A stretch of 21,261 nt of DNA from an uncultured euryarchaeote. Lineage in GTDB: Archaea > Thermoplasmatota > Poseidoniia > Poseidoniales > Poseidoniaceae. Shown here one piece after another: positions 1,050 to 21,261 of the stretch (its first letter is position 1; each line of letters starts with the position of its first letter). A program made the translations under genes and the position numbers. Under the pieces are notes generated by a model. That model made no database searches. It was not told the origin of the DNA and saw nothing but the letters and a program-made list of their open reading frames with translations. The DNA lies in NCBI GenBank assembly GCA_937899865.1, contig CALBRH010000061.1, positions 1-21,261 of the forward strand, read 5' to 3'.

Positions 1050-3974
1050 ATGAAGCGCGATGATGACAACGTTGGTGGCCGCATTATTTCATCTGCAATT
1101 GTACTACTTATTCTCACCTCTTTAGCACCTTTAATCAGTTCGGGTATTCCTACTCAGCAAGCCGTTTTGGGCGACTCTCAAGTGTTTTCATCAAGTTCAT
1201 CAAACGAGTCATATGATTTGTTTATTGATTCATCAACTTCTGAATCAGGGGGAGATGGTTCAATTTCAACTGCAGAACCAGATGGCTCATCAGAGGAACT
1301 TAGTGTCTTATCAACAGTCGAATTCTACACCAATGAAATGATTAGTGACATTCGATTTTATGGTGAAGGCGCTAACAATTACATTGAGTTGAGCATATAT
1401 CTGAAATTTACTGGTAATGATGGCGCTACTACTGATGTTACGTTTAGATTGTTATCTGGTAGTTCTACTGTTGAACAAGTAGTTCTTGAATTAGATGACC
1501 CTTGTACTGAAGGAGGTGGCTTTGGTGGCGTGGGAGGCGGTTCTTGCACTTATGCTGTTAACGTAATAAATTTCGAGATACAAGAGTCTGGCTTCTTGGT
1601 TGAAAACGGTAAAAAATTAGGGCTTGAAATAGATGCAACTATTGATGGCTGTCAAGGAAGTGGTGGATTCACAGGCGGTGGAGAAAACTGTGATGTTGAA
1701 GTGCAGTTTGGTGATATTGATTCAACCAACAGTTTTTCTAAACTAGAAGTTAAGGCTAATGCTTTGGCAAATTCAGCAGTTAAGGTTCACATGCCTGGCT
1801 CTGGATGGACAGATAACGAAGTCTTGGAGTGGTATCCAAACCATCGTCAAGAGTTTAGAGAAATGCAATTTACTCTACAAGTTAAAGACGCATTTGGTAG
1901 GGATGACATCGAGAGTGTTAATCTAATTATGAGTTCAAATGAAGGCGCAACAACAATTTTCAATGAGGAATTTGAAGATGATGATTTAATTCTAGATAAT
2001 AACGGACTAGTTGGTAATTTCACCTATGTTTTTGATCAAGGCATTGAGCCAGGAGAATATGATGTTACACTTGAGATAAAGGATATTCAAGGTCATACTG
2101 TATTGTTTGAACATCAAGGATTAGAATTTATGGAACACGGAATTTATCTGTCTTTGCCGTCCAATCAACCAGATACAGTTTTGATTGCTCCAGGTCAAAC
2201 ATCAAGCGTTGAATTCCTAGTAGAACACACTGGCTCAACATCTTCAGATTTAGAGGTTGTTTTTGATTTAGCTCGTTCATTACCATCTTCATGGTCAGAC
2301 CCAATATGGGATAAGCCACAGGGCTATTCATTACAGGGTGGCGGTACATCTGCAAGACCGATTCTGCAAATTGATGTACCTGAAGGAGATTTGTCAAATA
2401 CCCCAGAAAAACTTGAGGTAGAAGCCAGAGCATTTGCTGACATTGATGGAACAGTTACTGAAGTAGCAGTGGTAGACATTATCCTCAATATCGAAGAAGT
2501 AGGTGTTTATGCGCCACCTCGAGTTTCCATTTACGAAGATGAAGAGCATCAAATCCAAATTTCAGATTCAACAAGACCTGAATTTTATGATGAAACTCTT
2601 TCACATTATGTTGACTCAGACGAGATAGGCGATTTCTATATTGATATTTTCAATTCAGGTTTTGATACAGATTCATTTTTCATTAGAGTAAATGAAATGC
2701 CTATATCTTGGCAATACAAATTCTTTGATAATGATACAGGAATGGAATTGACCGAGGAAGGAATAAATTCAGTAACTCCAGATATTGGTTCACATGATAT
2801 TTTGTCAATTAGGATGGAGGTGTATCCCCCAACTGATAGAGAAGCACAAGATATTGGATTGGTTTCTTTGGATATAACTAGCTCAGGAGATTCTGAGTTG
2901 CAAACTGAAAGTAGTTTTACTGTTCATAGGACATTTGGAATACTTGCAGAAGTTATTTCCGATAGCGATGGTGGTGTTTTAGGAACGGTTGGTCCAGTTG
3001 ATCCGGGTTCGGATGTAAGTTATACAGTAAGGGTTTCAGATACCAGCGATATTGCTGGCGAGACTACTTGGAGAATAGTTAATCCAAAGGATTTAGCGCG
3101 AAACATTGATGCAGACATGGGTTATAGTTCATGGGATTATTCAATAACTGATAATCAAGAAAATGAGGTTATCGTCATAAACTTAGCAGCAGAAACCTAT
3201 GAAGACATAAATCTTGGAATCACATTACCAGAGAATGTAGAAGCGGGCAATCAAACCATATACCTTAGAGTTTCAGAGGAAGGCGTTGATTCAAATGAAG
3301 CTAGATACTTCGATTTGCCAATTATCGTTAAGGTTGAGGAAGATGTCCAACCAGGTCGACTACCAATTACTCAGAAGAGTGAATACACAAGATTTTCTTC
3401 TCAAGAAACAAGGAGTATTGAATTTAGAATTTCCAATGACAATAACGTGCCATTAGATGTAGTTATTGAGTTAGAAGAGCCTACTGGATGGGATGGTGAA
3501 ATTGCAGCATCATCTTCACAAGTTGGTGGTGGTTTCTTACTTGTAACATTACCAGCATACACGAGTAAAGATTTCTTTGTTGAACTTACGGCTCCAGATA
3601 ACCTAAAGGATGGTACAGATGTTGAATTTGTTTTACGAGTCACTCCTATGGATGATGAAGTTCCATACAATTCCACTTATACTCAATTGTCCAAGTTTAA
3701 TTTCAAGACTGAATGTACTGGAATTGGATGTTTAATGAATGAAATTTACGACCCTGAGCCTCAAACCTTAGCCCTCGGTGCTGGGTTAGTACTATTGTTT
3801 ATCCTTGCAGTATACCGTAGAGGTCGTTATGATTCAAGTGGAAGTTATGTTGAAGTTCCAGTTGAAGATCAGATGAAATTAGATGAAGAAGAAGTAGTTC
3901 AAATGGAAGTGCCAGAACCTGTAGTTGAAGAAGACGATGATATTGAATTGCTAGATGAATTAGACCAAATCTAA
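1050..3974 (+). CDS. Large acidic secreted protein with a C-terminal membrane anchor; multiple Ig-like/beta-sandwich domains (COG1470/NEW3-like); probable cell-surface protein
   Basis: Long ORF (track start TTG 1026; ATG 1050 preferred). Hydrophobic N-terminal signal (IISSAIVLLILTSLAPLI), repeated beta-strand-rich acidic modules, TM helix LALGAGLVLLFILAVY followed by RRGR and an acidic tail. Confidence 0.85.
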   Translation: MKRDDDNVGGRIISSAIVLLILTSLAPLISSGIPTQQAVLGDSQVFSSSSSNESYDLFIDSSTSESGGDGSISTAEPDGSSEELSVLSTVEFYTNEMISDIRFYGEGANNYIELSIYLKFTGNDGATTDVTFRLLSGSSTVEQVVLELDDPCTEGGGFGGVGGGSCTYAVNVINFEIQESGFLVENGKKLGLEIDATIDGCQGSGGFTGGGENCDVEVQFGDIDSTNSFSKLEVKANALANSAVKVHMPGSGWTDNEVLEWYPNHRQEFREMQFTLQVKDAFGRDDIESVNLIMSSNEGATTIFNEEFEDDDLILDNNGLVGNFTYVFDQGIEPGEYDVTLEIKDIQGHTVLFEHQGLEFMEHGIYLSLPSNQPDTVLIAPGQTSSVEFLVEHTGSTSSDLEVVFDLARSLPSSWSDPIWDKPQGYSLQGGGTSARPILQIDVPEGDLSNTPEKLEVEARAFADIDGTVTEVAVVDIILNIEEVGVYAPPRVSIYEDEEHQIQISDSTRPEFYDETLSHYVDSDEIGDFYIDIFNSGFDTDSFFIRVNEMPISWQYKFFDNDTGMELTEEGINSVTPDIGSHDILSIRMEVYPPTDREAQDIGLVSLDITSSGDSELQTESSFTVHRTFGILAEVISDSDGGVLGTVGPVDPGSDVSYTVRVSDTSDIAGETTWRIVNPKDLARNIDADMGYSSWDYSITDNQENEVIVINLAAETYEDINLGITLPENVEAGNQTIYLRVSEEGVDSNEARYFDLPIIVKVEEDVQPGRLPITQKSEYTRFSSQETRSIEFRISNDNNVPLDVVIELEEPTGWDGEIAASSSQVGGGFLLVTLPAYTSKDFFVELTAPDNLKDGTDVEFVLRVTPMDDEVPYNSTYTQLSKFNFKTECTGIGCLMNEIYDPEPQTLALGAGLVLLFILAVYRRGRYDSSGSYVEVPVEDQMKLDEEEVVQMEVPEPVVEEDDDIELLDELDQI

Positions 3975-4063: not shown

Positions 4064-7000
4064 ATGCGTAAGCGTTACATTGTCTCACAGCCGGCTGCGA
4101 ATTTGCAGATTGTTAAGCATAAAGATGCCATCAAATCATTGTCGCTTATTGCGCTTATGTTGCTATCTACAATAGCCTCAATCAACTTCTTTGCAATCGA
4201 TGCAAGTGCATCAAGCACCGATCAAGATGGTGATGGCCTTACTTATGGTTTAGAATACTTGATAAATTCATTTCCTAATGACCCTGATACAGATAATGAT
4301 GGATTGCCAGATGGTTGGGAATGGAAATATGGATTAGATCCTCTTTCAAGTGCTAATGATGATGGCGCAGTTGGAGATCCAGATGGCGATGGAATGTCAA
4401 ATCTTCAAGAATACAATTACTTGATGCCATCAGGTTGGGATAACCCAGCAACACCAAACTTGTTGGATAATGGTATTTGGTGGAATGGTACAGTACCAGT
4501 AAATAATTGGAATGAGGAAGATTCACTGCAATACTTACGACCTCTTTGTGGCGATGCAGGTTCAGACGGAAATGGTAACACTATTCTTTGTGATGAAGAC
4601 CCAGTTGGAAACATCTGTGCTAATGGTTTTGATGATGACCAAGATGGTTTGTTGGATTCAGCAGACCCAGATGGCGATGGTGATGCAGACTGTTCATCTG
4701 ATGATGATGATGGCGATGGCTTGATTGATGAGGATGTAAATGGTTGGGATACTGATGGTGATGGGATGCCAGACGGTTGGGAAGCAGCTAATGGTTTAAA
4801 TGCAACATCCCCTTCAAATTTTGATGGTCCAAATGGCGACCCTGATGGCGATGGCTTGAACAATTTGCTTGAATATATCAATCCAACATGGAATACAATG
4901 TGTGGCTCAATACCATGTTTTAGACCAGGTACAGAAGGTAATCCAACAGAGACAACATCTCCTTGTGACCCGGTAACTGGAGTTGGACCAGGTGGTTGTG
5001 CAACTTATACTGCTGAAGTAGATGGAATCACATCGACTAATCCTCAACGTGCAGATAGTGATAATGATGGTTTGAATGATTCTTATGAAGCACTTGTATT
5101 GTTAACAGACCCAACAGCATCTGATACCGATAATGATGGAATTCCTGATGGAGTTGAAGTAAATGGATTATATGGTAACCCTCCACAAGCAAGTGACCCA
5201 CGTAATAACAATACTGATGGCGATGCGCTAGATGATGGCGAAGAAGATAACAATAGTAATGGTGTTTTAGATCCCGGTGAAACCGACCCTACTCGAAAGG
5301 AAGATTCTGGGGATGAAGACCAAGATGGAATTCAAAATTGGGAAGAAAATCTATCATGTACACTTTGGAATGTAGCGGATTCTGATTTTGGTGGAGTGAA
5401 TGATGGTGATGAACTAAATGTAACTCATGGCACCGATCCATGTGACTCATTCATAAATTTCGAAACCACGATAAATAGCTGGGATTCAGGGAACTCCCTT
5501 TTATCAATTCAAGATGTATCAGGATTTAATCCGAATGGAGGTGAAGGCTGGTATAATTTGTCAGGTACATTAACTCCGTTTACTTATGAGCGAGTATCAG
5601 GTCAAGCATTGGTTGCTGTTTCTACAGGTCCTTCTCCAGGAGTTACTCAAGTAGTGAATAGAAATGGTTCATTCTGTCATACAGATGCAACAGCTGCAGG
5701 TACATTGACAACAACTCAACAGTATTGTGATGATGATTACGAAGACTCTGATGGAGATGGACTTGCAGATTGGGAAGAAATTCTTGGAGTATATGGATGG
5801 TTTTCAAATCCAAGCCAAGTTGATACTGATTCTGATGGCGTAAGTGATTTCGATGAAGTATTCGACTTTACAGATCCGAACGAACCGTGTAATAATCTTC
5901 TTGACGATGACAATGATAATCTTAACAATTATTTTGAGGATACCATAGGATGTGACTTGATTTGGATAGGTATAGGTAATGGTAGTACTGATGCATGGGT
6001 TACTAATCCAACAGTATTCGACACCGATAGTGGAGGTGTTGACGATCGAACAGAATATTTTGATGGAACTAATCCTGAGTCTAATCCATTAGATGACGTA
6101 CTTCCAGAAGATTTTGATGGCGATGGAATCCCAGATGCCATAGAGAATCTAACTGGAACCGATTGGACTAACCCTGATACAGACGGTGGTGGGATGTTAG
6201 ATGGAGACGAATGTCCAATTGCATTTTGGGGTACATTATGTACAAACTCACCTTATGACCCATTTGATCCTACAGATGATATTGTAGAAGATGGTGTTGT
6301 ATTTTGGGCTAACAATACTACTGGTGAAGTAGATATCAACCAAATTCACCGATGGAGATTGAATACTAACGATTTTTACACAGGTTCTACTTATGCAAAC
6401 CTACAAGATATTCATCCATTCTCACCTATATTGACAAATGTAGATAATTCAAGTCAATTACCCGATGATAGTTTTTCTAATTCAACTATTGATTGGGAAA
6501 TAACCTATAGAGAACTTATTGGCCTTGGCAATATACCGGTTTCTTCATATTATCGTAATCTTACATTCTGGTCCGATCCTGCTGCAACGTTACTTAGGTC
6601 AAACGATACGCACAACATCAAAGTTGATTTAGGTGAAATCAATAGATTAAATCTAAGGCAAGAAGAATATTTCTTTGATTGGGATTCACTTGCTGCTAAC
6701 ACAATTGTAAGTCAAGACTTTGATTACCAACTTGTAGTCCCTTCAGAATTTGATGATCAACAGTCTTCTGAATATTTTGTCACTCAAACAGTTAACTCAG
6801 TTACTCAAAATGCAACCTCACAAGATGCTTATACTGTAGCAAAATCGTTGAGCGATTTCTTACGTCTAGGCAATGAAACATTCGAGTTCAATTTATATCA
6901 TACTCCAGTATCAAATCCTACTGGACAAGATATAACATCTTACGTTCTTCAAAGTGGTTTTGGGCAGTGTAAAGACTACAATACTGCCTTTGTAACTATG

Positions 7001-10000
7001 GCTAGGATAGCTGGTCTACCTGCTAGATATGTTACAGGTTATGTTGGTGGCGAATGGAATGGTGCAGGTTACACAGTTTCAACACAAGATTATTCATCTT
7101 GGGGTGAAGTTAAACTTTCTTTTGATTCTGGATCGGGTGAAATTGACTTAGGATGGGTTCCGTTTGATTCTTGCCCTGCTTCTGAAAATTTGACAATTCT
7201 TAATCAAACAATTTCACCGTTTACAATCGATCGGGATTTATCGGATACCTTTAATTTCTCAGGACAATTTGTATTTGCAGATAATTCAACTCCAATTGCC
7301 AACTACGATTTATCAGCATATTTAGTACCTTTAGCTAATCCTCAAGCAGAGTTAGTTGAGGAAATGTTAGTCGGTGAAGTTCAAACAGATGGTAATGGTA
7401 ATTTTTCTTTTAATGACTCCCTCTCTATTTCTCTCAATCCCGGTGTGTATTCCTTATTAATCAGGCATGGAGCCTTCGAGTTAATATCCCAAAATGTCAT
7501 TTTATTCTCTAGTTGGTTGAACTTGACGGATGATTCGGTAATTACACACGAATTCCCACTTGTAATTGGAGCACCAGTTGTGGGTGCTGGTTCAACTACA
7601 ACGATACAAGGTCAAATCAGTTATGAGAACTCTCCAGAGGACTATTCATTTGAAAGTGGAGATGTTAATATTTATTTGACTTTCATATCCTCTTTTAATG
7701 GCACTAATAACCTATCAGGACTTGTAACCCCTTCCGGGGCATGGTCCGTTAATGTAGAGTTAGATGAAACAGAGACACTTGGAATAATAAATGCTGAGTT
7801 ATGGTTTGAAGGATGGGTAGAAGAATTTGATCCTCCAATTGCAATCTCAGAACACCATTTGCGTCCTTCCAACCTAAGCATCAGATTGGATGTTAGAGAA
7901 GCTCCAAATTTGACTGCAACAGTCGAAGGACCGCTATCAAACAAAAGTATCTTGGTGGTAGATCAAGACATTTGGGTAAATGGTTCTGCACAATCTCTAG
8001 GCCCTAGTCCAACAGACATGGAGGGTCAATTAGTACTCTCAATGCGTGAAAATGGTTCATTTAGTTCATGGAGTGAAATATTTAATATTACAGTAAACGG
8101 TACTTTTTCTATTCAGCAACAATTGACAGCACAATTAGCAAATTTTGGTGCTGGCGAGGTTGAAGTTAGATTAAGGTTCATACCAGTCTCAATTCAAGCA
8201 ACTGACGATGCAAATCTGTCTTCTAGTGCGCCATATAAGTTGAAAAGTTTCCTGCAGTTTGAATTTGAATCAACTTCACAATTACGAGGTTATGATGGTT
8301 CGTTTGGAGTGTCTGTTTTAGACCATCGTGGAGAACCCGTTAGATCAACGGTTGGAGATTTTGATTTCTTTTTCAATAATTCATGGTTCAACACTACGTC
8401 TAACATATCGGGACAATTTCAGAAAGTAATCAATTTGGATGCTAATTTAACTGCTGATGATTATGTTATTGGAGTAGTTTACAATGGGAGTGATGATTAT
8501 TCTCCGTCAACTGGGACTGGATTTTTGAGGGTCAAAGCAGAAATTGGATGGAACATCACAATCAGCCAAAATTGGACACATTTGGGCGATTCATTGTGGA
8601 TAAATGGCACAATATTCGATGGAGTCTATCAAACCCCAATTCTTGGAGATAATATTTCTCAGTACTCTTTGGTATTGGTTACTGAGGATGAAAGGATTGT
8701 TGATTTAGCACAAGGAATTGTAGATAATCAAACCTCAACTTTCTCTGAAAACATTACAATTCCAAACAACTTACCATCAAATGCTTACGATGTTGAAATA
8801 AGATTTGACTTTTACAGTCAGCAACCAGAAGGAGGCCCATACTATGCCTCAGAAGATCCAATAGTTGACGAATCAACCGGTTCAATATCTGCTCTCCCTA
8901 CCCCAGTAGTCTTGGTTGGAATAGAATCCGAATTTGTTGTAAGTTTAGCCGAAGAGCGAGAGAGAACCACACTTACTAACAATGATATCGAATTATCGGC
9001 TATTGTAGGTGATCTTGCTGATTTAAGTTTACTGCAAGGTGTCTCTGTTGACTTTTATTTCGATTATAATTCAACAAATGTTTCAATGGGTAGTTCAGTT
9101 AGCGATCCTAATGGATTTGCAAACCTTACTTGGACCGCAGCTGGAATCGCACCTGGATTATATGATATTCTAATTGTTGTCGCAGATGATTTGACAGATC
9201 CTTTAGCCAAGGGTAATTCTCGACGCACTGGAAATAGTACAGTCATTAATGTCACTATACAAGGTAATACTGATATAAGAATTGATTCAATACCAAGTAA
9301 CGTTATCGCTGGCGTCGATTTCAATGTTGTTGGACAAGTTATTGATGATGATGATAATTCTCGTGTATTAGTAGAATCAGTTAACTTAAGAGTTAATTGG
9401 TTGAATAATGAAAATGAGACATTAGTTAGTTCTTACACTACTACTACTAATGGTTCATTCAATATGTCTGTACCTACTGACACGCTTAACAATGGAACAG
9501 TTCGTGGAGCTAAAACTTTGGTAATTTCAGTTGTTGAGGATTCATCAAAATTATATCTGACATCATCAGTTGAGACACCAGTATTTGTATTAGGAGTAAC
9601 TCAATTTGAATCAATTCAACCATTGAATGCAATAGTTGTCAACCGCGGCGATAGTGTCAACATAACATCTAGGCTAGTTGAATCATCCAATTTGTTCCAA
9701 CCACTATCGTCATATGATGTGAACTACAAGTTTAGAGGTAGTTCAATTGGTACAGTACTAACCGATAACGAAGGATTTGCTAACATTACTCACACCATAC
9801 CATTTACGCAACCACTCGGTTTGACAAATGTAGAGATTACCTTTGCTGGAACTATTGATTTGGTAGGTAGCAACGCTAATTTCTCAACAATTAACGTCCG
9901 TTCTCTAACTTTCTTAGTAATTGATGACATTACAGCAAATCCTGTGGCTGGAGAATTATTCAATATTTCTGGACAGATTACTTCTGACAATGGAAGTGGA

Positions 10001-12985
10001 TTAGAACAAATCGATGGAACCGTTTTACCAGCAAATATTCTGTTTGAAATTAATGGTGAATCGCTTGGATTTACGGTGACAGGCGGAGTAGTTGGACAAG
10101 ATGGATTCTGGAATGCATCTATTCTTTTGTCGCCAAACTTTGCTGCAGGAAATAATACATTAGGTGCGACATATATTCCTGCAGTAAACTTCTATCTAGG
10201 TTCCAATAATACGAGTTTATTCGATAGTAGAGGATTCACTGAAATTCGATTCATAGATCCAATACTTGACTTACAAGGTCAGCCAAGTTTGAATGATAGA
10301 GTCGAGAGAGGCAATGATGTTGAAATTGAGGTTTTATTAATCGATAATACTGGTGAACCGGTTTCAGGTCAATTGATTACAATTTCACTCAATGGTACTG
10401 ATATCAATACAATTATCACGACCGCAGAGAATGGTACTGCCTTCGGAGTTTTAACAACACCTGCTAACATGTCAGTAGGTGTCAAAGATGTTAATGCAAT
10501 TTACACAGGTACATTTGGAACTACAGGTCTTTTGGGTTCAGAATCAAATACTTCATTTGTTGTACTTGCTGAAACAAATATTACGATAACAGAATATTCA
10601 GAGAGTTTGATCGCTGGTGATTATCTTACTGTCAACGGTACTCTACTAGATGACTTGGGACAGAGTTTAGCGGTTCTTGATGTTCCATCTTCAGCGGTAG
10701 TACACCTAATGATTGACGGAGCATCAGTTGCAAGTACAGAGACAGACGCATCAACTGGACAATTTAGCCTTGGATATTCCCTGCCACAGGACATTTCTGC
10801 TGGCGCTCACACCATTACAGTAGAATTCTTTGGTGGCCGAGATTGGGTAGACCCAATTGGCGTTGGAGAGCCATCAAATCCAGAATATTATCTGCCAACA
10901 TCCACAACTGTACCTTTCAATATTAGTGTGCCTACTCAAATCACCTTGCTTACACCAGGAGGCGATGTTAATCGAGAAGAAGTAATGACCATTGAAGGAT
11001 TATTACTTGATTTAGTTGATAATCCACTACCTAATTTAACAATTGAAGTTTGGTTAGACGGTGATTTCATGACGAATGTCGATACTGATGAAGACGGGTT
11101 ATTCACTGCGATATATCCAGTTTCTGCTGATGCAGAACTTGGCCCTGTTCTACTAGAAATCAGATTTAATGGAAGTACATTTTATTTGCCAAGTTATACT
11201 AATGCGACTTGGAATATCTTTAGCCATATTGTATTGAGTGTTGAAGTGCCAGAAACAGTGGCAGTTGGACAAAATATAACGATAACTGGAAGTGTGGCAG
11301 ATAATCAACTAAATCCAATTGCTGGCCATCAAGTTGAACTAATTATTGAGGGAATTACCATTACTTCCGTGACTACAGACTCATCAGGTGCATTTTCTTA
11401 CGATTGGACAGTTTCAGATCTGTTTGAATTTGGTAATAGGACAATAACAGCTTATTCTGGTAGCCAAGGCTACTACAGAGCAAATAGTACTAATGCAACA
11501 TTCTTCCTTGCTCACAGAGCAGATATGACTGTATCATTTGATAGTAATGCTCAGGTAACTAGAGGCGAACTTTGGGAAATGTCAGGAAGGCTGTTTGATA
11601 TTGATTCACTGACTAATGAAGGTTTAGAAAATGAAATCTTAGAAATATATCTTGATGGAGAGTTAGTGGCAACAACTCAAACTACAACTAATGGAGATTG
11701 GAGCGCAATTATTTTTGCCACTCAAGATTTGTCAAGAGGATTACATGAGATAGAAATTGTATTCCCAGGGACATTATCACACATCGGAACCGATGAAATG
11801 CTAATTGGCTATGTATGGGCAGACCTTGACATTTCTATTGATTCAACATCAACAACTGTAGCGATAAGGTCAGATGGAACATTTGGACCAATATCAATTA
11901 CTGGTTCTATTTCAGAAATCGGTGGAACAGGAGAAATCTTTGAGAATCTAGCAATAAATGTTGGAAATGGTACAGATTGTGAATCTCAAAGAGAAGGTGC
12001 AAGATGTATACCTTCCAGTTTGATAAATATTGATTGGCTAAATGGTAATTTTACAATAGATACTGTTATACCATCATGGTTTGAAGCAGGTTCACAATAT
12101 ATCCACTTGGATGTTCTCGAAAATAACACATACTATCTTAACAGTGAATCGATAAGTAGACAAATATTCATCAAGTTAAATGTTGATTTCGAATGGGAAA
12201 TCGCCCAAATAGATGAAAGTGGCAATAAAGATGTATTTGGTAGTATAACCATTATCGCTAATGATACAGGTCTTGGAGTACCGGGAGTTTCAGTTACTTA
12301 CACACTCAAGAATGAATCTAATGGCCAACTTGCAAACCCATTGACAGTAGTAACAGACCCTTCAGGTGTAGCAGGATTTGAATTCAATTCAGACCCTCCA
12401 TATGGTGATTATGATAGATGGGGATATGTTTACGTTGATGCAATAATTAGTGATCCAATTATCTCAGACAATAGCCAAATTCAGTTTGAAAGTTTACGCT
12501 CATCTGAGGAATTTAATCCTAAGTATAAGTTCGATGAGGAAGAAGTGAAAGTACCAACATGGGCCTATGTACTGCTCGCATTGGTTGCTATTTTGGCTGG
12601 TGTCGGAGTTGTAATTTATCTTCGAAGAGCAAATAATGAATTATTACAAGAGGCAGCAGAAGTATTTGCTTATACTGCTGAACTTCTAGCTGCTGGAGAT
12701 TCGATTAGAGAAGCAATTTTCAATTGTTATCAAAATCTATGTACTGTTTTACAACAAAATGGCTTCCTAAGAAGGGATTTCGAAACTGTAAGAGAATTCG
12801 AAGTTGCGATTAGACAAGCCATGCCACAAATCTCGGATGACGCCTTATTGGCACTTGACAATATGTTCGAAATGGCAAGGTACAGTCGTGATGAAATGGG
12901 TGCTCAACATCAGCAAGCAGCACAGATGGCTTTGGAAAAGATGATTCAAGAGATCGCAAACCTAAGCGCGATACCTAACAGATGA
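4064..12985 (+). CDS. Giant (2973 aa) surface protein: signal peptide, DxDxDG Ca-binding repeats, transglutaminase-like domain, Ig-like repeats, TM helix, DUF4129-like cytoplasmic domain
   Basis: About 20 DxDxDG-like motifs in aa ~50-740. TGase-like motifs GQCKDYNTAFVTMARIAGLPARYVTGY (Cys969) and GWVPFD (Asp1035). About 1750 aa of beta-rich repeats. TM WAYVLLALVAILAGVGVVIYL from aa 2833. C-terminal YQNL...ETVREF...FEMARYS matches the DUF4129 pattern as recalled. Confidence 0.9.
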   Translation: MRKRYIVSQPAANLQIVKHKDAIKSLSLIALMLLSTIASINFFAIDASASSTDQDGDGLTYGLEYLINSFPNDPDTDNDGLPDGWEWKYGLDPLSSANDDGAVGDPDGDGMSNLQEYNYLMPSGWDNPATPNLLDNGIWWNGTVPVNNWNEEDSLQYLRPLCGDAGSDGNGNTILCDEDPVGNICANGFDDDQDGLLDSADPDGDGDADCSSDDDDGDGLIDEDVNGWDTDGDGMPDGWEAANGLNATSPSNFDGPNGDPDGDGLNNLLEYINPTWNTMCGSIPCFRPGTEGNPTETTSPCDPVTGVGPGGCATYTAEVDGITSTNPQRADSDNDGLNDSYEALVLLTDPTASDTDNDGIPDGVEVNGLYGNPPQASDPRNNNTDGDALDDGEEDNNSNGVLDPGETDPTRKEDSGDEDQDGIQNWEENLSCTLWNVADSDFGGVNDGDELNVTHGTDPCDSFINFETTINSWDSGNSLLSIQDVSGFNPNGGEGWYNLSGTLTPFTYERVSGQALVAVSTGPSPGVTQVVNRNGSFCHTDATAAGTLTTTQQYCDDDYEDSDGDGLADWEEILGVYGWFSNPSQVDTDSDGVSDFDEVFDFTDPNEPCNNLLDDDNDNLNNYFEDTIGCDLIWIGIGNGSTDAWVTNPTVFDTDSGGVDDRTEYFDGTNPESNPLDDVLPEDFDGDGIPDAIENLTGTDWTNPDTDGGGMLDGDECPIAFWGTLCTNSPYDPFDPTDDIVEDGVVFWANNTTGEVDINQIHRWRLNTNDFYTGSTYANLQDIHPFSPILTNVDNSSQLPDDSFSNSTIDWEITYRELIGLGNIPVSSYYRNLTFWSDPAATLLRSNDTHNIKVDLGEINRLNLRQEEYFFDWDSLAANTIVSQDFDYQLVVPSEFDDQQSSEYFVTQTVNSVTQNATSQDAYTVAKSLSDFLRLGNETFEFNLYHTPVSNPTGQDITSYVLQSGFGQCKDYNTAFVTMARIAGLPARYVTGYVGGEWNGAGYTVSTQDYSSWGEVKLSFDSGSGEIDLGWVPFDSCPASENLTILNQTISPFTIDRDLSDTFNFSGQFVFADNSTPIANYDLSAYLVPLANPQAELVEEMLVGEVQTDGNGNFSFNDSLSISLNPGVYSLLIRHGAFELISQNVILFSSWLNLTDDSVITHEFPLVIGAPVVGAGSTTTIQGQISYENSPEDYSFESGDVNIYLTFISSFNGTNNLSGLVTPSGAWSVNVELDETETLGIINAELWFEGWVEEFDPPIAISEHHLRPSNLSIRLDVREAPNLTATVEGPLSNKSILVVDQDIWVNGSAQSLGPSPTDMEGQLVLSMRENGSFSSWSEIFNITVNGTFSIQQQLTAQLANFGAGEVEVRLRFIPVSIQATDDANLSSSAPYKLKSFLQFEFESTSQLRGYDGSFGVSVLDHRGEPVRSTVGDFDFFFNNSWFNTTSNISGQFQKVINLDANLTADDYVIGVVYNGSDDYSPSTGTGFLRVKAEIGWNITISQNWTHLGDSLWINGTIFDGVYQTPILGDNISQYSLVLVTEDERIVDLAQGIVDNQTSTFSENITIPNNLPSNAYDVEIRFDFYSQQPEGGPYYASEDPIVDESTGSISALPTPVVLVGIESEFVVSLAEERERTTLTNNDIELSAIVGDLADLSLLQGVSVDFYFDYNSTNVSMGSSVSDPNGFANLTWTAAGIAPGLYDILIVVADDLTDPLAKGNSRRTGNSTVINVTIQGNTDIRIDSIPSNVIAGVDFNVVGQVIDDDDNSRVLVESVNLRVNWLNNENETLVSSYTTTTNGSFNMSVPTDTLNNGTVRGAKTLVISVVEDSSKLYLTSSVETPVFVLGVTQFESIQPLNAIVVNRGDSVNITSRLVESSNLFQPLSSYDVNYKFRGSSIGTVLTDNEGFANITHTIPFTQPLGLTNVEITFAGTIDLVGSNANFSTINVRSLTFLVIDDITANPVAGELFNISGQITSDNGSGLEQIDGTVLPANILFEINGESLGFTVTGGVVGQDGFWNASILLSPNFAAGNNTLGATYIPAVNFYLGSNNTSLFDSRGFTEIRFIDPILDLQGQPSLNDRVERGNDVEIEVLLIDNTGEPVSGQLITISLNGTDINTIITTAENGTAFGVLTTPANMSVGVKDVNAIYTGTFGTTGLLGSESNTSFVVLAETNITITEYSESLIAGDYLTVNGTLLDDLGQSLAVLDVPSSAVVHLMIDGASVASTETDASTGQFSLGYSLPQDISAGAHTITVEFFGGRDWVDPIGVGEPSNPEYYLPTSTTVPFNISVPTQITLLTPGGDVNREEVMTIEGLLLDLVDNPLPNLTIEVWLDGDFMTNVDTDEDGLFTAIYPVSADAELGPVLLEIRFNGSTFYLPSYTNATWNIFSHIVLSVEVPETVAVGQNITITGSVADNQLNPIAGHQVELIIEGITITSVTTDSSGAFSYDWTVSDLFEFGNRTITAYSGSQGYYRANSTNATFFLAHRADMTVSFDSNAQVTRGELWEMSGRLFDIDSLTNEGLENEILEIYLDGELVATTQTTTNGDWSAIIFATQDLSRGLHEIEIVFPGTLSHIGTDEMLIGYVWADLDISIDSTSTTVAIRSDGTFGPISITGSISEIGGTGEIFENLAINVGNGTDCESQREGARCIPSSLINIDWLNGNFTIDTVIPSWFEAGSQYIHLDVLENNTYYLNSESISRQIFIKLNVDFEWEIAQIDESGNKDVFGSITIIANDTGLGVPGVSVTYTLKNESNGQLANPLTVVTDPSGVAGFEFNSDPPYGDYDRWGYVYVDAIISDPIISDNSQIQFESLRSSEEFNPKYKFDEEEVKVPTWAYVLLALVAILAGVGVVIYLRRANNELLQEAAEVFAYTAELLAAGDSIREAIFNCYQNLCTVLQQNGFLRRDFETVREFEVAIRQAMPQISDDALLALDNMFEMARYSRDEMGAQHQQAAQMALEKMIQEIANLSAIPNR

Positions 12986-16943: not shown

Positions 16944-18347
<1,404 letters not shown>

Positions 18348-18374
18348 TTTTCTAATCACTCAATGTATAGAGCT

Positions 18375-18466
18375 CCATACAGAGGGTAGCGTCTGTATCG
18401 GCCCACTGAATCCCCTTTGTATCGGAAAATAAAATGCAAAGGGGTTTGGGATAACCCCTTGCAACT
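18375..18466. repeat. Cluster 1 of the degenerate 12-bp box CCCTTTGWAWCG (6 copies, both orientations)
   Basis: Boxes at 18375(rev), 18389, 18402, 18413 (exact CCCTTTGTATCG), 18432(rev), 18455; hairpins ATACAGA/TCTGTAT and CCCCTTTG/CAAAGGGG. Confidence 0.75.
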
Positions 18467-18491
18467 TATCCAAATCAGTTTGTTGATTGAA

Positions 18492-18890
18492 TCAATACTG
18501 AGGGGGTTGTTGAAACTGTTGTTGCATCATAGGTTGTTGCATTTGTTGCATCATAGGTTGTTGATATTGTGCATCTATGAGTGCTTGAATATCATTTCTA
18601 AGTGCATTTGCTTTCCCTTTATTCATGCCATGAATTTGTAAAACATTTGTTCCACCAGTTGTATCAACGGTTACCAAATCCCAAAGCAAACCTTTCTTTA
18701 TTCTGACAGAAGATATTTGTCTAGCATTCATTCTTTCTTCATCAGATAGCCAAAACAAGATGACACCTCTGCGATCAAAGGTTGTAATTCCGTTCCCGTC
18801 TACTGTTATTGATTTTGGAAAAAACAATTTAGCCCACCAATGAAATGTACATATTGCCCAAAATCTACTCTGCTGGTATTTACCTGGCAT
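18492..18890 (-). CDS. Small protein with a bacterial PH-like domain and a Gln/Pro/Met-rich C-terminal tail
   Basis: 132-aa ORF. The beta-rich core (ITVDGNGITTFD...ISSVRIKKGLLWDLVTVDTTGG...IHGMNKGKANALRNDI) resembles bPH domains; the tail is QYQQPMMQQMQQPMMQQQFQQPPQY. Confidence 0.65.
   Translation of the reverse strand: MPGKYQQSRFWAICTFHWWAKLFFPKSITVDGNGITTFDRRGVILFWLSDEERMNARQISSVRIKKGLLWDLVTVDTTGGTNVLQIHGMNKGKANALRNDIQALIDAQYQQPMMQQMQQPMMQQQFQQPPQY
18519..18563. repeat. 21-bp direct repeat (period 24) encoding the QQPMMQQ tail
   Basis: TTGTTGCATCATAGGTTGTTG at 18519-18539 and 18543-18563. Confidence 0.9.
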
Positions 18891-18939
18891 GAATCTTCTA
18901 AAGGTTTAGCATATTTTGAATTAACTCAAGAATATAATG

Positions 18940-19043
18940 CAATTCAAAGGGGGGCCCTTTGTATCGTATACGATAACAAGGGTACCGTTTGAAACGCCAC
19001 TGTTTCAGAGGGATACCCATTGAAACGGGTAGGATTCAAAGGG
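18940..19043. repeat. Cluster 2: tandem array of 3.5 degenerate palindromes, period 30-31 bp
   Basis: CAATTCAAAGGG-ggg-CCCTTTGTATCG-tata / CGATAACAAGGG-ta-CCGTTTGAAACG-ccac / TGTTTCAGAGGG-ata-CCCATTGAAACG-ggta / GGATTCAAAGGG; unit starts at 18940, 18971, 19001, 19032. Confidence 0.85.
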
Positions 19044-19045
19044 AA

Positions 19046-20275
19046 TTAGTATTCTACTTGATTGGCATTGATTGTGATGTCATATTCGTAGAGCCCCTTC
19101 TTACTATTTCGCTTGCGTATTGTGTTAATGATTGGGGTGCCATATCCCAACTCCCTCATCATTTCTGCTAGCAATAAATGGGTAGGGACATGAACACCAT
19201 AAAATAACGAGTTTCCCACGATGTAGTGGAGAGTTGCATTAGGTGTTAGCAACTTTTTCAATGATTGTAGGTGCAAGTACATATCATGAAAATACTTGTG
19301 AACATACTTGGCCATTAGATGTGGATTTTTCTTTTCATTTTTCTCTCCTACACATATAATTTCGGATTTCAATTTCTCAATTTCAAGACGTTCTGGTAGT
19401 GTAATTATTGGTTCCCAATCATTTAGTTTCGAGGTGGCTACCCCCCATGTCCCACCAACGCATTTCCAATCCAATTGTCCTGCCTCAGAAGGTTGATCAA
19501 GAAATTCAGTCCAATACATGAATGGCCGTAATTCTCGAAGGTAAGACATCCTGTTGCAATATGGTGGTGAAGTTATCACGAGGTTGTGGGGTTCCAGTAC
19601 CACCGAAAAATTGGTACTGTCATCAAGAATGACACGTGACGAACTAGGCAAGGAAATGGATAGGCCAAGGGACATATTGCTCAGTGCATCATCAGCCAAT
19701 TTCTTGAAATCATCTGTAGAAAAATTTTCCGCACCCTTTCCAAATGAAAGTGATTGGTGATTCCGCTTGATATTAGACATTGATTCGACAAGTTGCAAAT
19801 GAGCACACGTCAATAGTTTGTATTCGTCCTTACTTTCCTTGGATACTACATTATTCAGATACCAGCGCATTTTCCCCAATAACAAAACTGTTTTTTTTGT
19901 CCACCATCGGTCAATATTATGCATCTTTGGAACGATTTTTTTTCGAGAATTAGACAAGGCATACTCAATGACAGCAGACCAAGTGCTGGATAATTTATCT
20001 GAACCAATATCACTGTAGTCTCCTAATTTGAGATTGCCTAACCAATGGAGGAATGGATTAATTTCAATTGCTATCGAACTGAATCCCATACTGGCAGCTG
20101 TGAGAGGCGTTGTTCCAGTGCCCGAGAATGGATCCAGCACAGAATAATTTTCTGAATCGTATTGTTCAAGTATTCTACCTACCAATTCTCTTGAGTAGGC
20201 AGGGGTCAGTGTGAACCAATTGTGCCTTGGGATTGACTTGTTGGCCTTGAAGGTTAAATCACTCCTCTGTTGCAT
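19046..20275 (-). CDS. Site-specific amino-DNA methyltransferase, alpha-class motif order, probably N4-cytosine
   Basis: Motif I DPFSGTGTT (from D48) precedes catalytic motif IV ITSPPY (S236). SPPY is typical of m4C MTases. C-terminal 'IVGNS...HVPTHLLLAEMMRELGY' also fits. Confidence 0.9.
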   Translation of the reverse strand: MQQRSDLTFKANKSIPRHNWFTLTPAYSRELVGRILEQYDSENYSVLDPFSGTGTTPLTAASMGFSSIAIEINPFLHWLGNLKLGDYSDIGSDKLSSTWSAVIEYALSNSRKKIVPKMHNIDRWWTKKTVLLLGKMRWYLNNVVSKESKDEYKLLTCAHLQLVESMSNIKRNHQSLSFGKGAENFSTDDFKKLADDALSNMSLGLSISLPSSSRVILDDSTNFSVVLEPHNLVITSPPYCNRMSYLRELRPFMYWTEFLDQPSEAGQLDWKCVGGTWGVATSKLNDWEPIITLPERLEIEKLKSEIICVGEKNEKKNPHLMAKYVHKYFHDMYLHLQSLKKLLTPNATLHYIVGNSLFYGVHVPTHLLLAEMMRELGYGTPIINTIRKRNSKKGLYEYDITINANQVEY

Positions 20276-21050
20276 TTAATCCCAACCTTGTATGAAGATG
20301 CCCCAATATTCTTTCACGTAGAGTCGAACCTACACGAGAGAATGCAGCCTCTAAGTCATAGTCCAAAAAGTCATTGATAAATGCGTAGGGGCAAGACCCA
20401 GCATTTCCTTCTGAACCAGATGCCGGAACAAGTACTGGTAACCCACTCGCTCTGTAGTTTCGTATCACACCTCTATTGTAACTGTTAGATGCGATTACGA
20501 CAACGCCAAGTAATCCTTCTTCGCGTGCTCTAGATACAATTTCTGTGTCACCAGCAACACGCTTAGAATCTGCACTTTGATAGCCCTGTCGAATTTCAAA
20601 TACAATCCCCCGAAATTCCTCAATTGGGGGTGGTTCACCCATCATTGATGCGATTTCGTATAGTTGTCTTTGCTTATTTGCATCAGTAATCATGTCACGT
20701 CGGATAAGTAAATCCAATTCACGGTTATGCCCATTTGAAGAAACAAAAGTCCACTTCAATTCATCTGGGTTGGAGCAATTTATCCAATCTTTACTTACTG
20801 AAATTAACCTAAATAACCGTTCAATACCAACCCCTAATTGTCGATATACCGAAGTCATCACTGAACTTCCGGCATGTGCAGTGTAAATGGTAGGGTCATT
20901 TAGACCAACAATGGAGTATAATGGGTCGTTATTCCTTGTTTCAACCCAATCGGCGAGCGAAACCCCTCTACCCCCACCAAACTTCGGCAAAGAATCACTC
21001 GCAAGGATGGGGTCACATATACATTCAATCAATTCAGCATCCGTGACCAT
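20259..21050 (-). CDS. Putative Type II restriction endonuclease (PD-(D/E)xK-like), cognate to the MTase
   Basis: Start reassigned to ATG 21050 (263 aa) because the track's longer start runs through the repeat cluster. The gene overlaps the MTase start by 17 nt. Candidate catalytic residues lie in ELDLLI...FEIRQGYQSADSKR, with a preceding helix TSVYRQLGVGIERLF. The function call rests mainly on linkage to the MTase. Confidence 0.6.
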   Translation of the reverse strand: MVTDAELIECICDPILASDSLPKFGGGRGVSLADWVETRNNDPLYSIVGLNDPTIYTAHAGSSVMTSVYRQLGVGIERLFRLISVSKDWINCSNPDELKWTFVSSNGHNRELDLLIRRDMITDANKQRQLYEIASMMGEPPPIEEFRGIVFEIRQGYQSADSKRVAGDTEIVSRAREEGLLGVVVIASNSYNRGVIRNYRASGLPVLVPASGSEGNAGSCPYAFINDFLDYDLEAAFSRVGSTLRERILGHLHTRLGLNATEE

Positions 21051-21140
21051 GTCAAATCGAGAGAATGACACTTGATAGTAATGACGGTGTGCGGTATTCA
21101 AATTAATCGATAGAATGCAAATGAAATAATCGAACCCTAC

Positions 21141-21254
21141 TATTCGCAAGGGTCTATCCCAATACCCATTGAAACGGGTTTGCAATTTCAAAGGGCTTTC
21201 AGTCCGTCCTTCGATAGGCTACCCTTTGTATCGAGGGGTATACGAAGGATTGAC
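21141..21254. repeat. Cluster 3 of the 12-bp box (6 copies), including a long imperfect hairpin at 21202-21254
   Basis: Boxes at 21141(rev), 21165, 21184(rev), 21207(degenerate), 21222 (exact CCCTTTGTATCG), 21238(rev, degenerate). ATACCCATTGAAACGGGT at 21162-21179 is identical to 19013-19030. Confidence 0.8.
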
Positions 21255-21261
21255 AATGCTT

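Follow-up and report, generated by a model that had tools for sequence, protein, structure and literature searches.

A strain-variable array of gene cassettes joined at TA dinucleotides behind gdhA in Poseidoniales archaea, with a serine recombinase as the favoured enzyme

The stretch of DNA analysed here, referred to as the window, is the entire 21,261-nucleotide contig CALBRH010000061.1 (C61) of an uncultured Poseidoniales archaeon, whose genome assembly (G000) comprises 2.01 Mb in 65 contigs and is 91% complete. At the right end of the window, behind the gene gdhA, we found small discrete gene cassettes that are joined to gdhA and to one another at an exact point, a TA dinucleotide between two inverted 12-nt boxes. 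We read this region as one end of a strain-variable array of mobile cassettes with its crossover at the TA and with a serine recombinase as the favoured enzyme, an interpretation that, taken whole, we consider a little better than an even prospect. Its parts differ in strength. Site-specific exchange of cassettes at the TA is very probable, and the prediction that the enzyme is a small serine recombinase carried by the cassettes themselves falls just short of an even chance. A sequence-only reading of the window had proposed an archaeal system for shuffling cassettes, on the basis of clusters of a palindromic box between the genes that follow gdhA. That proposal is supported by our comparisons, with the correction that the unit is an inverted pair of boxes around a TA and not the single box.

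The window holds three junctions and two complete cassettes, the second of which carries a restriction-modification (RM) pair and the first an open reading frame (ORF) of 132 aa. The features are as follows.

16992..18347, plus strand: gdhA, a core gene and the left-hand anchor of the array (Pfam ELFV_dehydrog, E = 1e-88).
18375..18400: junction J1, consisting of the fixed gdhA-side half-site, the TA at 18387-18388 and the first half-site of the ORF cassette; six continuations are known past the TA.
18375..18491, plus strand: A element, variant 1, about 100 nt long and partly palindromic, beginning at the TA (covariance model R1, E = 6.8e-35).
18389..18982, minus strand: cassette 1, consisting of the A element, the 132-aa ORF with an AT-rich upstream region, and an end hairpin; defined by its insertion in L090 relative to L091.
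18492-18890, minus strand: the 132-aa ORF, whose sole match is a sub-threshold one to Helicase_IV_N.
18971..18996: junction J2, with its TA at 18983-18984, between cassette 1 and the RM cassette; four left neighbours meet the RM cassette between 18982 and 18983.
18985..21219, minus strand: cassette 2, the type II RM pair, at least 99.5% identical in eight contigs whose flanks differ, two of them belonging to other species.
19046-20275, minus strand: methyltransferase (PADLOC MTase_II, 1.7e-33).
20259-21050, minus strand: restriction enzyme (PADLOC REase_II, 3.1e-34).
21117..21233, minus strand: A element, a diverged inverted copy that forms the right end of the RM cassette (R1, E = 1.7e-21; nhmmer, E = 7e-17).
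21208..21233: junction J3, with its TA at 21220-21221, linking the RM cassette to the cassette that follows; three right neighbours follow the half-site plus TA.
21222..21261: the first 40 nt of a further cassette, cut by the contig end; L090 and L091 run on through this stretch, in L090 into a gene of 327 aa.

The three junctions share one architecture, 12 + TA + 12 = 26 bp, which forms an imperfect palindrome. The consensus of the half-site adjoining the TA is CGATACAAAGGG; left and right half-sites repeat each other in inverted orientation, and the TA itself is present in 43 of 45 aligned A copies. Bases flanking the TA move with their own side, and the partners joined at a junction have the TA alone in common. 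J2 sits within a tandem array of hairpins (18940-19043). The genes between the junctions all lie on the minus strand, as the sequence-only reading had stated, and its assignment of a restriction enzyme and a methyltransferase among them is upheld by the PADLOC matches; its 'PH-like' label for the 132-aa ORF was not confirmed, the Helicase_IV_N match listed above being the only hit. The 3' end of this ORF (18505-18572) is built of tandem repeats of 24-27 nt that encode a Gln/Met/Pro-rich C-terminal tail. In cassettes elsewhere the cargo includes a zinc-dependent dehydrogenase, acyltransferases, regulators, an HNH nuclease and a C5 methylase.

The position of the junctions comes from comparison with public contigs, which we gathered by looking up identical copies of GdhA, of the methyltransferase or of a 145-aa protein. 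Upstream, contigs encoding an identical GdhA match the window at 99.7% identity, and they agree with it over the 40 nt behind the stop codon as far as the box and the TA at 18387-18388. Beyond this TA they diverge into six sequences, of which four are variants of the A element and two are short hairpin types. On scaffold L097, gdhA is followed by a single 0.55-kb cassette and then by the end of contig C6 of the source genome, at 99.6% identity; the array therefore lies between two convergent genes, gdhA and the gene for the 145-aa protein. The anchor on C6, behind the 145-aa gene, is again a box plus TA, and seven different sequences follow it among contigs that encode the identical protein. 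A gene at the end of contig C54 had been considered as the far side of the array by inference from other species, and was discarded because the same-species contigs lead to the 145-aa gene at the C6 end. On its left the RM cassette (at least 99.5% identical) meets four different neighbours, always between 18982 and 18983, and on its right three, always at the TA at 21220-21221. Flanked genes that are fixed across strains, with no breakpoints at the clusters, would have refuted the sequence-only reading. We see the opposite: the cargo varies within the species from a single TA onward and the RM cassette occurs in several contexts with its breaks inside box clusters. In a wider comparison, gdhA is kept in all 30 relatives searched, and the cargo downstream of it has no DNA match in any of the 30.

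Besides these joins of discrete cassettes to a fixed anchor (six at gdhA, seven at C6), the comparison yielded one precise insertion. L091 and L090 have the same left flank; L090 contains the ORF cassette exactly at the TA and has a TA on either side of it, whereas L091 has a single TA, so that the TA target is doubled in L090 relative to L091. The same outcome would be left by a transposon, or a unit like a miniature inverted-repeat transposable element, with terminal inverted repeats and an IS630/Tc1-mariner DDE transposase that inserts at TA and duplicates it, and the ends of the cassette are indeed weak inverted repeats (matching at 7/12 and 6/12 positions). We give this explanation very little credence. 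The terminal repeats are poor, the insertions always adjoin another box and never an arbitrary TA, and 151 genomes of the order yielded no hit to the IS630-type domain DDE_3 in a search in which control genomes scored.

The core genes of L090 and L089 are only 65-76% identical to those of the source genome, which places both loci in other species. Despite this distance, the RM and ORF cassettes together reach 99.7% identity in L090, and L089 has the RM cassette alone at 99.5% identity; the transfer of these cassettes is therefore recent. Junction behaviour of the same kind occurs at an unrelated locus, where six continuations follow GGG-TA. Between three other species, from other genera, modules are shuffled with breaks at A elements. 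In L089 the RM cassette lies in an island directly after a tRNA gene (8420-8500); in the source genome the same tRNA (C44, ~57980-58080) lacks an island of this sort. A search of the window for tRNA and tRNA-like genes found none.

The boxes themselves are enriched and clustered. With up to two mismatches, CCCTTTGWAWCG has 17 matches in the window compared to 4.5 +/- 2.0 expected, and none of 100 shuffles reached 17. The three gaps after gdhA contain 12 of the 17 (2 + 7 + 3), including the only exact copies (at 18413, 18955 and 21222, one in each gap), and the boxes there are tandem hairpins of alternating orientation. The first 18.3 kb contain the other five matches, which are scattered and have two mismatches each. 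We thus recover most of the sequence-only description: the clusters in both orientations, the exact 12-mer once per gap, a first 18.3 kb free of clusters, and gaps that lack the attC end motifs RYYYAAC and GTTRRRY, neither of which occurs on either strand of the three gaps. Its figure of about 19 boxes requires a looser definition than the one we scored, under which the gaps hold 12. The boxes in gaps 1 and 3 also turn out to be contained in a conserved element of about 100 nt, the A element, present in each of these two gaps. An Rfam search found nothing at E <= 1.

Across the source genome the 12-mer has 363 matches with two mismatches in 2.01 Mb, which is the background frequency, and only seven box clusters exist in the whole genome, three of them in the window. 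An even scatter of sites, which the sequence-only reading had named as a refutation, is not what we see, and the A copies are few and clustered. These counts bear on an alternative that it had also offered, a dispersed palindrome family like the repetitive extragenic palindromes (REPs) and bacterial interspersed mosaic elements (BIMEs) mobilised by REP-associated tyrosine transposases (RAYTs). In its mechanistic form, similar to IS200/IS605, the hairpins would fold in single-stranded DNA and be cut at the foot by an HUH (Y1) enzyme. The likeness is real in that REP/BIME sequences are also short intergenic palindromes of alternating orientation, some with a GTAG foot, and many of the Poseidoniales junctions read GTAG across the TA. 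GGG-TA-CCC junctions, however, have no GTAG, the copies number in the tens and not the hundreds, and they lie clustered at cassette joints instead of genome-wide. Y1_Tnp (PF01797), and with it a RAYT, was found in 0 of 121 genomes of the family in a search in which control genomes scored. We reject an abundant REP-like family and consider an HUH mechanism most improbable. A generic scan for CCC...GGG hairpins gave no enrichment over shuffled sequence and was too crude to use.

The A element in gap 1 has three further copies in the source genome (93-97% identical), and copies in other species and families are 85-96% identical where gdhA is 68-80% identical. By iterated profile searching we recognised the element in gap 3 as a diverged A of opposite orientation, and found head-to-head pairs of A to be common. 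Within one array A elements face both directions, and since they mark one end of many cassettes, the cassettes in these arrays are not co-oriented; those of the window itself are. The covariance model finds 9-24 A copies per genome, clustered at few loci, in five genomes searched with lax filters. In the order as a whole, 113 of 151 Poseidoniales genomes, representing 21 of 22 genera, have the element in 1-24 clustered copies each. A 25-nt core of A occurs in only 26 stretches among the genomes of 185,579 species, all of them in Poseidoniales-type records that include single-cell genomes, and the public records that contain the element bear the names Poseidoniaceae or Poseidoniales. By exact matching, a 22-mer of A was not found in the viral database IMG/VR, and blastn searches with two A variants against 50,697 phage records gave nothing at E <= 1. 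A resemblance of parts of A to the phage T7 T-phi terminator was treated as chance; the T7-type RNA polymerase gene of the source genome is 52 kb from the nearest A element.

All eight A-related loci of the source genome are within 3 kb of a contig end. More sites resembling box-TA-box are present near its contig ends (C65, 95178; C23, 45246; C62, 8; C46, 7392), which suggests that there are more cassette arrays than the A-element model finds. In the assembly of a relative, G011, a second contig, C60 (L045, 3253-3473), has the last 90 nt of a gdhA like that of the source genome, followed by a mosaic A element. The cargo behind it differs, and the contig stems from either a strain variant or another population.

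The A elements also raise the question of whether these sequences act mainly at the level of RNA. A has its 5' end turned toward the 3' end of the upstream gene in 43 of 59 cases, with the following start codon mostly 35-65 nt past A. Among 45 aligned copies, 83% and 77% of cells are paired in hairpins H1 and H3, respectively, with compensatory changes in both. One could argue that A and the hairpins work chiefly in transcription or as RNA, for instance as terminators, insulators or 3'-UTR structures, and that cassettes are exchanged by homologous recombination on the portable homology they provide, for which 85-96% identity across species over the length of A would be sufficient. The breakpoints argue otherwise: homologous recombination would scatter them over A, whereas they fall at one dinucleotide with at most about 12 nt in common beyond it. 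The RNA evidence is itself mixed, because RNAalifold found no consensus fold for the 45 copies, one subfamily of A does not maintain H1, the Rfam search was negative, and A has no T run of the kind that terminates transcription in archaea. An alternative helix in A, GGGGTT/AACCCC, was discarded because it shows no covariation. We therefore regard RNA function combined with homologous exchange as improbable as an explanation of the arrays; A elements may have a second role in transcripts.

No Resolvase and no Y1_Tnp domain was found in the window or in the source genome as assembled, so a recombinase gene linked to the array, for which the sequence-only reading had suggested looking, does not appear there. 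In relatives, small serine recombinase genes are found inside arrays of this kind. Genes with a Resolvase domain are present in 21 of 151 Poseidoniales genomes. A co-oriented A element precedes seven of the 13 short serine recombinase genes (234-283 aa) at a distance of 5-185 nt, in five cases with an extra half-copy of A; in other contigs the recombinase gene is inside a cassette that begins with A. The proteins consist of a Resolvase domain and part of a Recombinase domain, and their nearest NCBIfam models are CcrB and CcrC, at scores well under the cut-offs. With its 1238 clusters, the family is found almost entirely on contigs of 1-5 kb, so the gene may often drop out of binned genomes. 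The median number of A copies is 7 in genomes with the recombinase and 2 in those without it, a comparison in which the genomes are not independent and which is confounded by relatedness and assembly quality. In IMG/VR the serine recombinase has no close relative. Two of the loci have distinctive neighbours: in L141-L150 (3790-4230) several short, repeated Cys-rich ORFs lie downstream of the recombinase gene in the same cassette, and in L108 the recombinase gene, with an A upstream, is immediately followed by a gene for a C5 cytosine DNA methylase (2319-3461).

Several observations weigh against this interpretation, and most of them concern the enzyme. The similarity of the candidates to the large serine recombinases CcrB, XisF and TP901-1 covers only the first ~250 residues of these enzymes, or about half. 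In neither the source genome (91% complete) nor the closed genome of a relative, G042, was a serine recombinase found, and both have A elements; the gene could therefore be mere cargo. Some copies have no A nearby (L107, L109 and L125), as would be expected of ordinary cargo. In L022 (~9400-9480; contig C3 of G009) the recombinase gene is frameshifted just past the catalytic-serine motif, and its product is probably inactive. The enzyme search covered few recombinase families. With regard to exchange itself, the contigs compared included neither an excised circle nor an empty anchor-to-anchor site, and metagenome contigs can be chimeric at shared cassettes.

Finally, a junction at a single point also fits a tyrosine recombinase that exchanges one strand pair, and a Phage_integrase gene is present as a single copy in 147 of 151 genomes, including the source genome (on C65) and the closed genome G042. 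The main rival to a serine recombinase is accordingly this universal, housekeeping, XerA-like tyrosine recombinase, which would act in trans on the same cassettes and sites and exchange one strand pair at the TA. Its distribution (147/151) matches that of A elements (113/151) better than does that of the sporadic serine recombinase, and the junction can be read as ~10-bp arms around a 6-bp centre such as GGTACC. There are bacterial parallels in elements that exploit Xer and in the pdif modules of Acinetobacter plasmids, which consist of 1-3 genes with short inverted sites, use the host Xer and have no recombinase gene of their own. The Poseidoniales modules resemble pdif modules in occurring in many contexts and in the presence of a universal host recombinase. 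Xer sites, however, have 11-bp arms and a conserved 6-bp centre, whereas in Poseidoniales the centre outside the TA is not conserved between partners (GG/GC/CC on the left, CC/GC/GG on the right), which ordinary tyrosine recombination does not tolerate; unlike those bacterial plasmid modules, the arrays are chromosomal and archaeal. Moreover, the XerA-like gene was never linked to arrays in the loci examined, the single Phage_integrase gene of the source genome being unlinked to its array, and nearly all sites that a scan for full sites returned were at contig ends. We also looked for a core, single-copy dif-like site resembling the box pair, with no convincing result, and we know of no dif site from these archaea for comparison. 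We judge the XerA-like explanation unlikely on balance.

Serine recombinases cross over at a dinucleotide between two inverted 12-bp half-sites, and the system we favour, with such an enzyme, can be outlined as follows. The cassettes, the exact junction, one precise insertion, the transfer between species and the distribution are observed, whereas the enzyme is inferred. A cassette spans 0.5-3 kb, contains between one and a few genes together with the promoter region belonging to them, and has at either end a 12-nt box pointing outward. Box-TA-box is the form of every join, both from cassette to cassette and to the core genes on the two sides of the array. Cassettes would be gained, lost and exchanged by site-specific recombination with its crossover restricted to the TA, and because the TA is symmetric, they can lie in both orientations. 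Many cassettes carry the ~100-nt A element next to one end. The further palindromes of A, which repeat the box sequence, might serve as accessory binding sites by analogy with res. The serine recombinase, of about 235-285 aa, would itself be borne on a cassette and act in trans, and arrays without a recombinase gene, as in the source genome, would resemble clusters of attC sites without an integrase.

Among known systems, the closest in site structure are the small serine recombinases. The hix and gix sites of invertases and site I of res in Tn3 and gamma-delta resolvase consist of inverted 12-bp half-sites with a 2-bp crossover, and res adjoins tnpR. The 12 + TA + 12 structure at J1, J2 and J3, with partners sharing the TA alone, is alike, as is the presence at seven Poseidoniales loci of a ~100-bp region with multiple palindromes directly upstream of the recombinase gene. 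Those systems differ in that they invert or resolve one fixed segment and form no arrays of exchangeable cassettes. The archaeal candidates differ too, in matching only the N-terminal part of large serine recombinases. A second comparison is with the staphylococcal cassette chromosome (SCC) and its Ccr recombinases, which also combine a serine recombinase borne on the mobile unit with insertion at the 3' end of a core gene, and whose CcrB and CcrC are the nearest, below-cut-off models for the archaeal proteins. SCC elements, in contrast, are large and single and use one site (the end of rlmH), and they do not form arrays of sub-kilobase cassettes at multiple loci.

The likeness to integrons (IntI, attI and attC), including the clusters of attC sites lacking an integron integrase (CALINs) and the archaeal integrons, lies in the overall organisation. 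In both, small discrete cassettes stand beside a fixed anchor site, the join point is exact and falls within an imperfect palindrome, cassettes are common to several species, and most arrays have no recombinase gene nearby. The Poseidoniales arrays differ in having neither the attC R''/R' motifs nor IntI, and no IntI-type tyrosine recombinase lies beside the array in the window. Integron cassettes all point one way and are read from a single promoter; those of Poseidoniales occur in both orientations with their own upstream regions. Their junctions consist of a symmetric TA flanked by 12-nt boxes, and the candidate enzyme is a serine and not a tyrosine recombinase. The system is thus integron-like in its working and fails the features that define an integron. 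We propose, tentatively and as somewhat less than an even bet, that it is a serine-recombinase counterpart of the integron that has no preferred orientation, in which the recombinase is itself a cassette, and that from several chromosomal hotspots it moves defence and metabolic genes across species, genera and families. We found no prior description of an integron-like TA-junction cassette system in Poseidoniales, and no paper linking marine group II archaea with serine recombinases or cassettes. Poseidoniales and Thermoplasmatota are absent from the main text of the paper on archaeal integrons (Ghaly et al. 2022, PMC9668308).

Upstream of gdhA, the window also contains an ORF of 2973 aa on the plus strand (4064-12985). 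An identical product elsewhere has Pfam Transglut_core and Big-type domains, among others, a domain content that makes a giant surface protein the probable product.

In the surface ocean, Poseidoniales count among the most abundant archaea; they are uncultured and have few recognisable mobile elements. The arrays bear on how the flexible genome of this order turns over, for which they offer a concrete mechanism, and the analysis supplies an exact 26-bp site, cassette boundaries, anchor sites at core genes and a candidate enzyme family. They also account for the breaks in the assemblies of these genomes at these places, and they give a rule by which cassettes and their cargo, including defence genes such as the RM pair, can be located in metagenomes. 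If the enzyme is confirmed, a compact pair of recombinase and site would be added to the known set. If the interpretation as a whole is true, it would establish a cassette system beyond the integron paradigm, in archaea.

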